This document shows positions 21,167 through 27,226 of a stretch of 64,000 nt of DNA, in pieces. A model generated the notes under the pieces. The model searched no databases and was not told where the DNA came from. It worked only from the letters and a program-made list of their open reading frames with translations. Position 1 is the first letter of the stretch. Each line of letters opens with the position of its first letter. The position numbers and the translations under genes are program-made. Source of the DNA: Promethearchaeota archaeon (lineage in GTDB: Archaea; Asgardarchaeota; Lokiarchaeia; Sigyniarchaeales; SOKP01); the NCBI GenBank assembly GCA_019058365.1, contig JAHPZE010000011.1:60921-124920 (forward strand), written 5' to 3'.

Positions 21167-21733
21167 ATGAAAGTTGTATTATTTAATGGAAGTCCAAGAA
21201 AAGAGGGCAATACATATCATTGCTTAAATGTAGTGATGGATGAATTGAAAGCTGCTGGAATTGAATGTGATTATAACTGGATTGGAATGGAAAAATTACA
21301 AGGTTGTACTGCTTGCATGAAATGTACAGAAAATGATGATCAGAGGTGTGTATTGAAAGGGGATAAAATGAATGAATATATAGAAAAAATGTTAAATTCT
21401 GATGGAATCATTATTGGTTCCCCTACATATTTTTCAGATTTATCAACAAGCACAAAAGCTTTAATAGAACGTGCCGGATATGCAACTGGAGGACATTTGA
21501 AGCATAAGGTAGGTGCAGCAGTAGTCGCTGTTAGGAGAGCTGGCGCAAATCACGTATTTTCTAGCATTAATTACTTCTTCCTCATTAAACAGATGTTTGT
21601 AGTAGGATCAAGTTATTGGAATGTCGGTTTTGGAAGGCAACCGGGAGAGGTGTTAGAGGACGAAGAGGGTATTAGAACATTTGAAAATTTAGGGAAAAAT
21701 TTTGCTTATTTACTTAAAAAACTTAAATCTTAA
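21167..21733 (+). CDS. Iron-sulfur flavoprotein (Isf)/flavodoxin-fold FMN reductase
   Basis: GSPRKEGNT, CTACMKC...C, GSPTYF. Confidence 0.9.
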   Translation: MKVVLFNGSPRKEGNTYHCLNVVMDELKAAGIECDYNWIGMEKLQGCTACMKCTENDDQRCVLKGDKMNEYIEKMLNSDGIIIGSPTYFSDLSTSTKALIERAGYATGGHLKHKVGAAVVAVRRAGANHVFSSINYFFLIKQMFVVGSSYWNVGFGRQPGEVLEDEEGIRTFENLGKNFAYLLKKLKS

Positions 21734-22737: not shown

Positions 22738-22757
22738 ATTATTAAGAACCTAACTAA
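22738..22757. promoter_or_regulatory. Degenerate operator copy upstream of marR
   Basis: ATTATTAAGAACCTAACTAA matches the palindrome at 23319 in 15 of 20 positions. Confidence 0.55.
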
Positions 22758-22760
22758 GAT

Positions 22761-23237
22761 TTGATAATAATGGATGATAAGAATTCTTCAAAATCTTTAG
22801 ATATTTATTGTCAACCAGAAGATATTGTTGAAGTTTTTGAACTTATTAACACATTAAATAAAAAATATGAAAAAATACAACGTGAAAATATACAACAATT
22901 GGAGCTTACACCTACACAACATCTAATACTAAGAGAATTATGGAGATCTGATGGTCAACAATTTAAAAATTTAGCGGAAACATGTAATTGTTCTAGATCC
23001 ACAATTACAGGTGTAGTAGACACAATGGAGAAGAACGATTTGGTATCTCGTGACTCACATCCTAACGATAGAAGAAGCTTGCTGGTTAGACTTACAAAAA
23101 AGGGAAAGGACTTAAGAACTAAAACACCTCGATTAGAATCAATGGTAAATGGATGTTGTCCTGGAATCAATGAGGAAGAAATAAAAAAATTAGGAGAATT
23201 ACTCCAAAAACTACTGAATTCACTAACTTCTTTATGA
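22761..23237 (+). CDS. MarR-family regulator with CxC and CC motifs
   Basis: LTPTQHLIL, TCNCSRSTITGVVDTME, DRRSLLVRLTKKG, NGCCPG. Start is likely the ATG at 22770. Confidence 0.92.
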   Translation: MIIMDDKNSSKSLDIYCQPEDIVEVFELINTLNKKYEKIQRENIQQLELTPTQHLILRELWRSDGQQFKNLAETCNCSRSTITGVVDTMEKNDLVSRDSHPNDRRSLLVRLTKKGKDLRTKTPRLESMVNGCCPGINEEEIKKLGELLQKLLNSLTSL

Positions 23238-23280: not shown

Positions 23281-23348
23281 TTTGTTAGGATCTTAATTAT
23301 ACGAAACAAAACTTTTATATAGTTAGGATCCTAACTATCACCTAACTA
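23281..23348. promoter_or_regulatory. Operator array overlapping a TATA box
   Basis: Perfect palindrome ATAGTTAGGATCCTAACTAT at 23319-23338; 16/20 copy at 23281-23300; half-site CCTAACTA at 23341-23348; TTTATATA at 23314-23321. Confidence 0.75.
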
Positions 23349-23379
23349 ATTAAAAATGTTATTGAGGTTATAATTACAA

Positions 23380-23478
23380 ATGAGAGATAAAAATGAAAAA
23401 TGTTGTTCTGAAGGATGTTGTGGTGAAGAGACTAAAAGTGTAAAAGAAGAAATTCAGTCAAAAGAAAGATGTTGTTAA
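23380..23478 (+). CDS. 32-aa peptide with three vicinal Cys pairs (metallothionein/metallochaperone-like; not in ORF track)
   Basis: MRDKNEKCCSEGCCGEETKSVKEEIQSKERCC; GAGGT upstream; first ORF after the operator. Confidence 0.75.
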   Translation: MRDKNEKCCSEGCCGEETKSVKEEIQSKERCC

Positions 23479-23666
23479 AGCGACAATACGATGTTTAAAT
23501 CAAATCTAATTTAAAAATTATAGATCAAAATTTTTATTTTTTTAAGTTTTATTTCAAAAAAAAAATACAGATTGGATAAAACTGTTAGTGATTAGAATTT
23601 GTTGAAAAAATGCAATCCAAAAATCGTTTTATACTATTTGTAAAATAATCAATTAACAAAATTAAT

Positions 23667-24293
23667 ATGGAGTTTAAAAAAATGAATGTACTGGGTATAG
23701 CAGGGACTCCTAGAAAGCAAGGGAATAGTGAAATCCTCTTAAGATATGCTTTAAAACCATTTAAAAATAATGGATGGGATATTAAAATTTTTCTTTTAAG
23801 TGCATTAACAATAAAACCTTGTAATGCCTGCGACTCATGCAAGAAAACTGGTACCTGTATTATTAATGATGATATGCAAGGGATTTACGATGCATTTCAA
23901 AGGTGTAATGCGATTATAATCTCAAGTCCTGTTTATTACCTAAATGTTAATGCTCAATTACTGTCCTTACTTGATAGATACTATGCAGTAAATAGTACAA
24001 AACCTTTAGAAGGGAAAGTAGGTGGAGCTATTGCTGTTGGTAATGGAACAAATGGAGGTCAAACATTAGCTCTTAATGCTATTTACACATGGATGCTCTC
24101 ATGTGGAATAATATGTGTTCCTGGTGTATTAAATGGGGTAAAAGCTGTAGCAGATAAGCCAGGTGATATTTTAAGCCAAAAAAACCAGTTAAAGCAAGCA
24201 GAAATTCTTGGACTTAATATTCTAAAAGTAGCAAAAGAGTTAAAATCCATCACGAGTTTTAATAAATACCCTAAATATAATAAAAAGGTGTGA
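23667..24293 (+). CDS. Iron-sulfur flavoprotein (Isf)/flavodoxin-fold protein
   Basis: GTPRKQGNS, CNACDSC...C, SSPVYY; stop overlaps the next start (GTGA). Confidence 0.9.
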   Translation: MEFKKMNVLGIAGTPRKQGNSEILLRYALKPFKNNGWDIKIFLLSALTIKPCNACDSCKKTGTCIINDDMQGIYDAFQRCNAIIISSPVYYLNVNAQLLSLLDRYYAVNSTKPLEGKVGGAIAVGNGTNGGQTLALNAIYTWMLSCGIICVPGVLNGVKAVADKPGDILSQKNQLKQAEILGLNILKVAKELKSITSFNKYPKYNKKV

Positions 24294-25975
24294 TTAATAT
24301 CGCAGTAGTCTATATGCGAAAGTTGGAATTAGAACCAGAGTCATACGAATCAAATTTCACAGCTCTAACAAAAGGAGCAAATGAGGAAGTACAAGATTGG
24401 ATATTGGGACGAATTAAAGCACAAGAGAAAATTCTAGAAGTAGGCTGTGGAACAGGTATTTTCGCAGCAAAAATGGCTTTAAGAGGAAATGAGGTATTTG
24501 CAATTGATAAAAACCATAGAATGATAACTACTGCAATGAAAAATTACCCTTCTAAATCAGATCTTAAATTGTTATATCAGATAGGCACTATAGATGATCT
24601 ACCAGTTCAGGATAACTCAATAGATATTATTATTAATACATTTATGCTTTCAGAACTTAGGCCCTTTGAACAACAAATTTTTCTTAGAAATGCATGGAAA
24701 GCTTTAAAACCGAATGGTCGAATGATTATAGCAGCAGAATTTATACCTACAGGTTTCTGGAAGCTTTGGTTTAACATAAAACGTTGGTGGTATAAAAAGA
24801 AATTAAGAAGACTTAGAATAGAAAGTACATTTTTAGTGAAGTGGTTCTTTAATTATTTGGAGCCTATTGGTTTTGAAATTTCAACTATAAAAAAGTGGCG
24901 ACATGGATCAATTCAGGTAATTGAATTAAAAAAGAATGACAATTTAGATGAACCTGGGTATTATCGTCCTAAATTAAGAAAAGCTAAAGGCTTTGGTTCT
25001 CAAATGAGTATTTATCGCTGTCTATTTACTGGACAAACTGATCATATACCAATTGAACCAGGTATTTACCAATCTGGTAATCCCAATGAAAATTCTCCTA
25101 TTATTGTGACAGCTAATTATGTTTATACATATATTAAAGTGATGCGTGCTCTTAAAGGAATAGATTCTTGGGTATTATGTTTAGATTCGAGAGGAATAAA
25201 TGTTTGGTGTGCTGCACGAGGAAACAATTTTGGAAATAAGCAATTAATTGAAGCCGTTAAAACTACGGGAATAGCAAATATTACTAATAAAAAGACAATT
25301 ATTGTACCTCAACTCTCAGCAGGAGGAATCGCAACACCGCTGATAAAAGCTGAGGCCCCAGACTTTCCATTTAATGTTGTATATGGTCCTGTATGGGCTA
25401 AATTTTTACCTAAATACTTAGAAGAACGTCCCGCTCGAAAACCTGATAAAATGAAATTAGCAAAATTTACAATATCGCATCGTTTTCGAGCAGAAATTAC
25501 ACATACAACATTTTTACTTCGAAAGATTTTTCTATGGCCCAGTATCGCCATAATTTTATTATTTACAGGTCTAAGTTTTATTAATCCTGTATGGATAACA
25601 CAATTATTGATTGTGGGCGAAATTTGGCTTTGGATAATTATAGCAAATGCGCTTATTGCGATATTTTTTCCCATAACAAAATTTACGAGGAAATTTATCA
25701 ATAAAGGAATCATTTTTGGAGTTATTAATGTTTTATTGTTTGGTGGAATTTCTTGGCTTTTTCATTATTCTCTGTTATCCATTCTTCTGAGTAGTATTTT
25801 TTACTTTTGGTTAGCTTTCTTTTCGACAATGTCATTTAGTGGATATACTATGGCAACAAGTCCTAGAGAAATTCAAGATGAGTATCCTATTTTCAGTAAA
25901 ATTAATATGATTTTATTGATAATAGGTCTTGTTACCAAAATTATTGGGTTCATTTTTTTTAATATTTTAAAATAA
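24290..25975 (+). CDS. Class I SAM methyltransferase fused to an HgcA-like corrinoid protein with C-terminal membrane domain
   Basis: N-terminal ILEVGCGTG and LKPNG. Then IEPGIY..GNP..NSPIIVTANY, GINVWCAARG cap helix, PQLSAGG and YGPV; about 5 TM helices; FSGYTMATS. Confidence 0.88.
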   Translation: MINIAVVYMRKLELEPESYESNFTALTKGANEEVQDWILGRIKAQEKILEVGCGTGIFAAKMALRGNEVFAIDKNHRMITTAMKNYPSKSDLKLLYQIGTIDDLPVQDNSIDIIINTFMLSELRPFEQQIFLRNAWKALKPNGRMIIAAEFIPTGFWKLWFNIKRWWYKKKLRRLRIESTFLVKWFFNYLEPIGFEISTIKKWRHGSIQVIELKKNDNLDEPGYYRPKLRKAKGFGSQMSIYRCLFTGQTDHIPIEPGIYQSGNPNENSPIIVTANYVYTYIKVMRALKGIDSWVLCLDSRGINVWCAARGNNFGNKQLIEAVKTTGIANITNKKTIIVPQLSAGGIATPLIKAEAPDFPFNVVYGPVWAKFLPKYLEERPARKPDKMKLAKFTISHRFRAEITHTTFLLRKIFLWPSIAIILLFTGLSFINPVWITQLLIVGEIWLWIIIANALIAIFFPITKFTRKFINKGIIFGVINVLLFGGISWLFHYSLLSILLSSIFYFWLAFFSTMSFSGYTMATSPREIQDEYPIFSKINMILLIIGLVTKIIGFIFFNILK

Positions 25976-26023: not shown

Positions 26024-26329
26024 GTGGTAAAAGTAACAGTAAAACCAACCTCAATTAAGATACCGACAGTTCTTCCAAAAATCTCGATAAATCCCGATTT
26101 GTGCACAGGTTGTGGCATATGCGGAGAAGTATGTCCGTTTGGAATACCAAAACCTAATAATGAAGGAAAATTTGAGATGTATGAACCAGAACGCTGTACA
26201 GAATGTTCAGCTTGTAAACGAAATTGCCCGACAATGGCTATCATATTACAAGAACGAAAAGGTTGCGGTTGTTTATGGAATGCACGTGCAGTAGCGAAAA
26301 ATCCACAAATTAATAGTTGTTGTGGATAA
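26024..26329 (+). CDS. HgcB-like 2[4Fe-4S] ferredoxin
   Basis: CTGCGICGEVCP, CTECSACKRNCP, GCGC and C-terminal SCCG; directly follows the hgcA-like gene. Confidence 0.85.
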   Translation: MVKVTVKPTSIKIPTVLPKISINPDLCTGCGICGEVCPFGIPKPNNEGKFEMYEPERCTECSACKRNCPTMAIILQERKGCGCLWNARAVAKNPQINSCCG

Positions 26330-26368: not shown

Positions 26369-27226
26369 TTAATAATCAAACATCTTTCTCTTCTTCTCTT
26401 CAAGAAAGCTTCTTCTAGTCAAGATCTCCATTTCCGCATTTAGCCAACAAAGTTCATCATAAGTACAGCTTGAATTGAAGACTTCCTCTGCCTTTCTCTT
26501 AATATCTTCAATAGAGGGCATATCAAGGTTTATTTTCTGAATTTTTTCAGCTAAAATCCAACATAGTTGGTCGTAAGTATATTCATCTAAAGAAAGATAA
26601 TATGCTGCTTCCCTTATTTGTGTCTTAAAATCTGGCTCTTCTGGTTGTTCTTTTTTCTCTTCAACTTTTTTTTGTTCCTTGGGTTCCATTTCAACTTTCG
26701 CGGGAGGTTGTTCAAACTCAACGAATTTAACAGTTTCAGGAGATTCTTTTAGCTTTTTAGATAGCTCATAGCTTCTATGATCCTTAATTTGTTGAAGCCA
26801 CTCTAATATTGGTGTTTCAATTTTTCTTTCTCTCTCTTCCACAGGTACATTAAATTTAACAGGTTTTATCCTTTCAGAAGGTGTTTTTAATACAAATTCT
26901 GGTCTTCGTTCAACAGTTTTCCCTGGTATTAACCCTCTTTCAAGATCATGCATCATAGCTAAAAAGGAGCCATATTCTCTCTTTTGTTTCATGATCAAGA
27001 TTTTTACTGATCCACCACGTTCTTTATCTATCTTCCGAGCAATTTCAGCAATAATATCCTTTTTTTCTTGAGGTACTTCTAAACCTACCCAAATATAAAT
27101 AGTATTTTTTTCTTCGTCATCAACAAGATATCCATTATTTTCATTAAAAGATAATCTATCTATCTTAATTAATTCGCCCTCATTACTAATATTAAATAGT
27201 TTCATTACACTCTCTCTCATGAACAT
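26369..27226 (-). CDS. Single-domain gelsolin with C-terminal X domain (1DGelX-like actin regulator)
   Basis: Gelsolin-fold YLVDD...IYIWVG...Q.RE...F; acidic linker; two AYYLS..YD.LCW..AE repeats. Confidence 0.8.
   Translation of the reverse strand: MFMRESVMKLFNISNEGELIKIDRLSFNENNGYLVDDEEKNTIYIWVGLEVPQEKKDIIAEIARKIDKERGGSVKILIMKQKREYGSFLAMMHDLERGLIPGKTVERRPEFVLKTPSERIKPVKFNVPVEERERKIETPILEWLQQIKDHRSYELSKKLKESPETVKFVEFEQPPAKVEMEPKEQKKVEEKKEQPEEPDFKTQIREAAYYLSLDEYTYDQLCWILAEKIQKINLDMPSIEDIKRKAEEVFNSSCTYDELCWLNAEMEILTRRSFLEEKKRKMFDY

Follow-up and report, generated by a model that had tools for sequence, protein, structure and literature searches.

A conserved Cys-Cys micro-protein encoded behind a cysteine-rich MarR-type regulator in Lokiarchaeia, a candidate inducible arsenic sink

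Organization of the locus

The window analyzed in this study, a stretch of 64,000 nucleotides from a member of the Promethearchaeota, contains a small open reading frame (ORF) with an ATG start and a TAA stop codon, whose product of 32 amino acids carries Cys-Cys (CC) pairs at residues 8-9, 13-14, and 31-32. Thereby, sequence and translation confirm an earlier note on this DNA, which had described an ORF of this length with three CC pairs at 23380-23478. The ORF lies behind the gene of a Cys-rich MarR-type regulator and is followed by genes for a flavoprotein, a methyltransferase-HgcA-like fusion (MTase-HgcA-like), and an HgcB-like ferredoxin (Table 1). The Shine-Dalgarno-like GAGGT named before is present, and the perfect palindrome ends 41 nt before the ATG, in agreement with the distance of about 40 nt between operator and ORF that had been given. 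The 14-bp operator core occurs in perfect form just once in the genome, within this palindrome, and a wider MarR regulon in this genome was rejected on that ground. Promoter and operator are conserved in the MarR-type peptide loci.

Table 1. Features of the peptide locus (positions refer to the window).
Feature	Position	Strand	Remarks
Imperfect operator copy before marR	22741..22754		Probable autoregulation
Cys-rich MarR, putative repressor	22770..23237	+	Near-invariant CxC 72/74 and CC 129/130; Cys-bearing N-terminal tail
Upstream imperfect operator copy	23284..23297		Conserved in MarR-type loci
Promoter-like element, archaeal	23302..23321	+	BRE-like GAAAC, then TATA box (23313-23321); kept across MarR-type loci
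Perfect 20-bp palindrome, putative operator	23319..23338		14-bp core 23322-23335; overlaps end of TATA box
Shine-Dalgarno-like GAGGT	23364..23368	+	11 nt before ATG
Cys-Cys peptide gene, 32 aa, conserved	23380..23478	+	Core CC-x16-CC plus duplicated CC unit
Oligo-T tract	23531..23543	+	About 50 nt past peptide stop; may act in termination or attenuation (weakly supported)
Iron-sulfur flavoprotein-like FMN reductase	23667..24293	+	CxxCxxCx5C motif; homologues begin five codons later
CpaM-like SAM methyltransferase fused to HgcA-like corrinoid and membrane domain	24290..25975	+	Cap motif NVWCAARG
HgcB-like 2[4Fe-4S] ferredoxin ending CCG	26024..26329	+	Below HgcB cut-off

By position, the peptide gene leads the operon as had been proposed, but its transcript may be partly uncoupled from the genes that follow by the oligo-T tract together with the gap of 188 nt to the next gene. 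T-tracts, mostly 45-65 nt downstream, were found in 24 of the 32 peptide loci, against a background of 43% of ordinary genes that are followed by one. As a weak suggestion, the tract may raise the peptide message above read-through.

The downstream pair resembles HgcA/HgcB in its N(V/I)WCA cap helix with Cys, membrane domain, neighboring ferredoxin with CC tail, link to the arsenic regulon, and SAM as methyl donor. It differs by the fused SAM methyltransferase, by the altered cap motif, located at residue 304, and by NCBIfam scores below the cut-offs (HgcA, 169 versus 275 bits; HgcB, 53.5 versus 99 bits); the fused enzyme also stays below the CpaM cut-off. Two further genes were noticed in the window. 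A second iron-sulfur flavoprotein-like FMN reductase is encoded 1.6 kb upstream of marR (21167-21733), and a gelsolin-like protein, an Asgard eukaryotic-signature protein unrelated to the peptide, is encoded downstream of the ferredoxin (26369-27226, minus strand), also in close relatives.

Conservation and properties of the peptide gene

The description of the peptide as unannotated holds for the ORF track used for the earlier note, but the exact peptide exists as a called, unnamed protein in NCBI and Logan sources. The ORF lies beyond chance expectation, since at least two CC pairs occur in only 22 of 30,416 small ATG ORFs of the genome. The conservation check suggested before was carried out, and the ORF was found to be kept in 31 genomes and one contig. 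All 32 intact copies start with ATG and are free of in-frame stop codons, whereas the other five frames at these loci are interrupted in 8-32 of 32 copies; as the copies were selected as ORFs and are kin, these figures describe the family and are no independent trials. The four core Cys are invariant among the 32 copies, with TGT and TGC both used and silently exchanged. Codon-position identity is lowest at the most variable third position (0.59 versus 0.71 and 0.79), and a pooled dN/dS of 0.42 over 22 ungapped cores is a sign of selection at the protein level. Also, an SD-like motif precedes 26 of 32 homologues compared to 8% of background small ORFs. Based on the frame-specific absence of stop codons, the silent Cys-codon changes, the third-position variation, the dN/dS ratio, and the SD enrichment, the peptide is a real, conserved gene, with counts that overstate the support owing to kinship among the loci.

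The homologues have a length of 25-36 aa (n = 32) and share a core layout consisting of Met, about six charged residues, a CC pair, a linker of Glu, Asp, Lys, and Ser, and a CC pair at or beside the C-terminus. The linker comprises 16 residues in 22 of 32 copies, and the spacing from the first to the last CC pair ranges from 14 to 25. Most copies are acidic, with a pI of 4.1-4.5 in three tested and 5.3 in the window copy. Cys accounts for 16% of residues on average and 19% in the window copy, and aromatic residues are almost absent, with one Tyr in 32 sequences. Four Cys are present in 21 copies, five in seven, and six in four; extra Cys were gained in 11 of 32 copies, including two independent duplications of the CC unit. 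The three CC pairs described before are thus a property of the window copy, while the family core has two, and the third pair originates from tandem duplication of a five-residue CC unit, which is common to four close genomes and decayed in one. A separate nine-residue duplication led to three CC pairs in the peptide of locus L078. Losses of core Cys are confined to a second copy that has decayed (L048) and to a 97%-complete genome in which the second CC pair is deleted (L025). Only the number of Cys and the character of the linker are kept in the family; this pattern would fit a flexible thiol carrier, in which the Cys count matters and the surface shape does not. Small, acidic, and with a vicinal dithiol at either end, the peptide is probably unfolded.

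Some loci are rearranged. The peptide region is duplicated around the flavoprotein gene in L048 (1489-1572) and L069; after duplication, the second peptide copy decayed in G068, and the peptide was shifted behind the flavoprotein gene in G065. In L161, the place of the peptide is taken by a diverged version with CxCxC at its end; it has no profile score and was assigned by position only.

For analysis of the distribution, a profile was built from 20 peptides. It found the peptide in 29 of 54 genomes of its own genus and in three of 42 genomes of one sister genus, and no peptide in the other 28 genera searched. Among 1.84 billion representative proteins, the profile found seven, all of the same type, and a search of the ESM Atlas returned only unnamed clusters, under 0.9. 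Upstream of the fused MTase-HgcA-like genes of relatives, a matching small ORF was present in many loci. The family has a narrow distribution, covering two Lokiarchaeia-type genera and one further contig, which limits its general importance. In the part of the literature searched, neither a tested member nor a description of a CC-x16-CC peptide family was found, and the peptide apparently represents an undescribed family of micro-proteins.

Association with the regulator and with downstream genes

The peptide follows the Cys-rich MarR more tightly than the HgcAB-like pair. In 28 of the 28 best MarR matches, the peptide is encoded just downstream, with one inserted gene in G008 and the diverged version in L161 counted; the close MarR homologues are mostly labelled Promethearchaeota or Lokiarchaeia. 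The MTase-HgcA-like gene shares the gene run with the peptide in 22 of 32 loci and is absent nearby in ten, and the flavoprotein gene adjoins the peptide in 15 of 32. Of 161 genomes in the class, 111 encode the fused enzyme and about 32 the peptide; in about 80 genomes with the enzyme, the profile found no peptide. In L072 and L161, MarR and peptide are followed by a convergent gene, leaving the peptide alone in its transcription unit, and in L066, L075, and L077, the gene after the peptide is unrelated and far away. In L079, the peptide is located directly before the HgcB-like gene. As the downstream genes vary and the association with MarR is constant, the peptide appears to be the constant output of a MarR switch and no obligate part of an HgcAB-like complex. 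The role as chaperone of this complex, which the earlier note had considered, is weakened in its obligate form by the ten enzyme-free loci, by the two loci with the peptide alone, and by the 111 genomes with the enzyme versus about 32 with the peptide.

In the hgcAB literature examined, no such peptide is mentioned. There, transcription of hgcAB responds to arsenic via an ArsR-like regulator, with the native function unknown (bioRxiv 10.1101/2022.10.17.512643), the methyl donor of HgcAB is SAM, and the terminal Cys of HgcB are needed (PMC11588087). Complementation of short HgcB tails by the peptide was considered and rejected, as both combinations occur. Apparent peptide matches inside frames of 400 aa proved to be opposite-strand chance matches in the flavoprotein gene. 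A second system of the window genome was noticed in L092 (G000:C48:34956-36736), where a stand-alone CpaM-like methyltransferase gene is followed by a gene for an HgcAB-like fusion protein whose cap motif contains two Cys; in L094, the counterparts of these two genes are fused to encode one protein of 647 aa.

The MarR subfamily and the arsenic context

Following the 28 best matches, 22 of the next 24 MarR genes are located within 1.5 kb of an arsM gene above the NCBIfam cut-off. Among more distant MarRs, those of L104 and L110 precede arsM and share the operator, and the one in L108, a contig of 62% G+C, heads arsM-arsD-arsA. In a midpoint-rooted tree, from which four peptide or arsM rows were left out because they were not recovered by extraction, the MarRs that head the peptide cluster together (support 93/99), next to three arsM-heading lineages. 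This suggests that arsM may be the older target. The subfamily (L104, L108, L110, L115-L144) has CxC and CC motifs and a shared palindrome and heads arsM in archaea; the comparison thereby defines a Cys-MarR subfamily with an operator that is linked to arsM in archaea and some bacteria. In L108 (4924-5091), an ORF of 55 aa with two CC pairs lies between MarR and an arsM without the usual Cys arm; it may be an ArsM N-terminus that has split off, comparable to the peptide as a CC arm encoded on its own.

For MarR_ars, a response to As(III) and Sb(III) through three Cys has been described (bioRxiv 10.1101/2021.08.12.456183), and the window MarR likewise has conserved Cys including a CC pair and is linked to arsenic genes. 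Compared by position without alignment to AdMarR_ars, Cys36, Cys37, and Cys157 of MarR_ars have no equivalents in the window MarR, which instead has Cys72/74, Cys129/130, and variable N-terminal Cys. The target of MarR_ars is arsV, whereas the subfamily described here is found with arsM or the peptide.

Four loci (L009, L012, L069, and L099), as well as L025 with its truncated peptide, have the peptide beside a divergent ArsR/SmtB-type gene, mostly with a different promoter. The ArsRs at peptide loci are 45-66% identical to ArsRs adjoining acr3. Regulators at the peptide loci are thus either Cys-MarR with the conserved operator or, in four loci, ArsR/SmtB, both with presumed inducers. Eight other genomes of two families have the MTase-HgcA-like/HgcB-like pair inside acr3 operons, mostly accompanied by a divergent ArsR; in G080 and G105, the pair immediately follows arsM. 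The eight cases (L080-L085, L089, and L023) include the single-contig genomes G050 and G055. In the window genome, acr3 with its ArsR is present, and no arsM, ArsD, or MerA was found above cut-off. The neighborhoods examined contained no metal-efflux or mer genes, whereas arsM, acr3, arsD, and arsA recur in them; no arsA was found beside any peptide locus examined. Arsenic was assigned from the MarR sister clade at arsM, from the acr3-type ArsR at four loci, and from the enzyme pair in acr3 operons. Judged by gene content, the context points to arsenic and not to mercury.

Replacement of ArsM by the fused enzyme, considered since the window genome lacks arsM, was rejected, as the two genes coexist in many genomes, in some of them within one operon. 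Control of hgcC-arsM operons by MarR in trans was also rejected; no operator was found upstream of those examined, and a different repeat is present there. HgcC (NF040962) proteins with Cys-rich N-terminal arms were noticed in L119 (1160-1459), L124 (1146-1460), L175-L188, and L086 (7701-7964). In most of the 14 HgcC-bearing genomes of the genus, the gene is part of arsM operons behind a repeated purine-rich motif, and in G039, it directly precedes the MTase-HgcA-like gene; HgcC may be an arsenic-linked regulator. Also, a protein of 106 aa with a CxCxW-type motif and no NCBIfam match is encoded after the HgcB-like gene in acr3 operons (L081:4873-5193; L023:3260-3580).

Proposed function and alternative explanations

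Regulator kinship and gene context lead us to propose, at about even odds (probability roughly 0.5), that the peptide is an inducible, stand-alone thiol sink for As(III) or methylarsenite. The Cys-rich MarR, bound to the palindrome beside the TATA box in a layout that is conserved, would block transcription. As in MarR_ars, and in accordance with the context of the sister MarRs, trivalent arsenic (arsenite or methylarsenite, possibly also Sb(III)) would bind to the Cys of MarR and free the operator. The short peptide could then be made fast and cheaply and soak up the metalloid, protecting the cell by sequestration. From arsenic-thiol chemistry, the peptide would be expected to bind one As(III) through three of its four thiols or a methyl-As(III) at each CC pair, and six-Cys variants such as the window copy up to two As(III). 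Read-through would allow expression of lineage-specific downstream genes; at the window locus, these encode the flavoprotein and the MTase-HgcA-like/HgcB-like pair and belong to ars operons in other Lokiarchaeia. The peptide would act as a stand-alone buffer and no fixed subunit. The earlier suggestion of a small peptide binding thiophilic metals or metalloids is thereby supported by conservation and context, with arsenic as a more plausible ligand than mercury. Against an arsenic sink, the MarR clade could have switched its inducer after the change of target, its Cys layout is unlike that of MarR_ars, and four Cys per 27 residues mean a low capacity; the narrow distribution of the family and the loss of the second CC pair in L025 also speak against it.

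If arsenic is bound, the peptide, at about 3 kDa, would represent a minimal As(III) sink that is genetically encoded, a role for which known ars operons rely on efflux, methylation, and ArsD, a folded chaperone. The peptide is cheap to synthesize and can be tested without culture of the host. Two unrelated types of repressor tie the HgcAB-like enzyme to the arsenic regulon, which bears on the native role of HgcAB. An extended version, in which a dedicated As-binding micro-protein, induced via an undescribed, As-sensing MarR subfamily, buffers As(III) and methyl-As(III) and also feeds a cobalamin-dependent, self-methylating HgcAB-like complex, is distinctly unlikely; if true, arsenic and not mercury would be the native substrate of this HgcAB branch.

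The peptide might instead be an optional shuttle that delivers bound As(III) or Hg(II) to the corrinoid site or to the CC-bearing tail of the HgcB-like ferredoxin, much as ArsD supplies ArsA, but this is unlikely on the present data. The gene run shared with MTase-HgcA-like in 22 of 32 loci, the position directly before the HgcB-like gene in L079, the proposed participation of HgcB Cys94/Cys95 in Hg transfer (PMC11588087), and the window genome, in which no ArsD was found, agree with it, but the ten loci without the enzyme nearby and the roughly 80 enzyme genomes with no peptide found do not, and the linker, which tolerates lengths of 14-25 residues, lacks a conserved docking surface of hydrophobic or aromatic residues. 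We rate equally low a general mini-metallothionein for soft metals (Hg, Cd, Cu, or Zn) whose MarR would sense metals. The peptide is small, Cys-rich, and almost free of aromatic residues, its control by MarR or ArsR/SmtB recalls that of smtA by SmtB (PMC12193353), and four Cys could accommodate a single Zn or Cd in tetrahedral or two Hg or Cu in linear coordination. However, the neighborhoods have the recurrent ars genes instead of metal-efflux or mer genes, no MerA reached the cut-off in the genome, no metallothionein profile matched, and the Cys are too few for a cluster in the monomer.

The peptide could also be a sacrificial dithiol of a thiol-redox buffer, controlled by an oxidation-sensing MarR and recycled by the flavoprotein, which we consider quite improbable. 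Iron-sulfur flavoproteins reduce O2 or H2O2 in anaerobes, and such a gene adjoins the peptide in nearly half of the loci (15/32). The nearest folds and profiles of the MarR include AbfR and OhrR, but with 18-30% identity and many near-equal matches these are generic for MarR proteins. The sister MarRs head arsM, the ArsR replacing MarR is of the acr3-linked type, and a vicinal CC forms a strained disulfide, unlike CxxC redox motifs. Highly improbable is a cis-acting leader, in which tandem Cys codons or ribosome stalling set the read-through at the T-tract and the peptide itself has no role. It would explain why the peptide is always first behind the promoter, except in L069 and the decayed second copy, and why a T-tract recurs downstream, but the peptide persists in loci whose next gene is convergent (L072, L161) or unrelated and distant (L066, L075, L077), T-tracts are common after ordinary genes, and the charge pattern and terminal CC are conserved beyond the needs of codon sensing. 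A chance ORF within conserved promoter-proximal DNA would be in line with the short, low-complexity sequence and narrow distribution, yet it is extremely improbable, given the frame-specific absence of stop codons, the silent Cys-codon changes, length variation in frame, the SD enrichment, and the survival of the peptide through a swap of promoter and regulator.

Comparison with known Cys-rich proteins

The window peptide had no sequence match in Pfam, NCBIfam, or PDB, and none of the 20 peptide members matched Pfam at E-values up to 1, metallothionein families included. It shares with the bacterial metallothioneins SmtA/BmtA, PmtA, and MymT that it is small, gene-encoded, Cys-rich, and almost free of aromatic residues, with a presumed repressor of metal(loid) type and a proposed function in sequestration. 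In contrast to them, it has about half the size, four conserved Cys in two terminal CC pairs, a strongly acidic linker, an archaeal host, and a context of arsenic rather than Zn, Cd, or Cu. For a polynuclear metal-thiolate cluster such as M3Cys9 (PMC11134313), the Cys of the monomer do not suffice, though those of an oligomer might. The term mini-metallothionein used before therefore describes a possible way of working and no family membership, given the missing Pfam match and the four conserved Cys.

Binding of trivalent metalloids by vicinal Cys pairs is known from ArsD and from one ArsR, and ArsD has two such pairs (Cys12-13 and Cys112-113; PMC2440759), as has the peptide, also in ars context. 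It differs from ArsD by the lack of the folded domain with the N-terminal Cys triad (no match to PF06953), by a quarter of the length, and by the absence of ArsA beside it; co-occurrence with an acceptor, either ArsA or by analogy the HgcAB-like pair, was not observed as a rule. Without a profile match and with too few Cys, the peptide is filed neither under metallothionein nor under ArsD. The same layout is found in the flexible arms with two or three CC pairs at the N-termini of ArsM and HgcC (NF040962) and the C-termini of HgcB, encoded in the ars-type operons of these archaea, whereas the peptide is a free gene. Origin of the peptide from Cys arms of ArsM, HgcC, MarR, or HgcB is not claimed, as profile scores did not exceed those of CC-preserving shuffles. 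Also, an intergenic ORF of 58 aa with ten Cys (CxxC, CC, CCC, and CC) and an AGGAG ribosome-binding motif was detected elsewhere in the window genome (G000:C53:31130-31306, minus strand) and is a candidate for a metallothionein-like or zinc-binding small protein.
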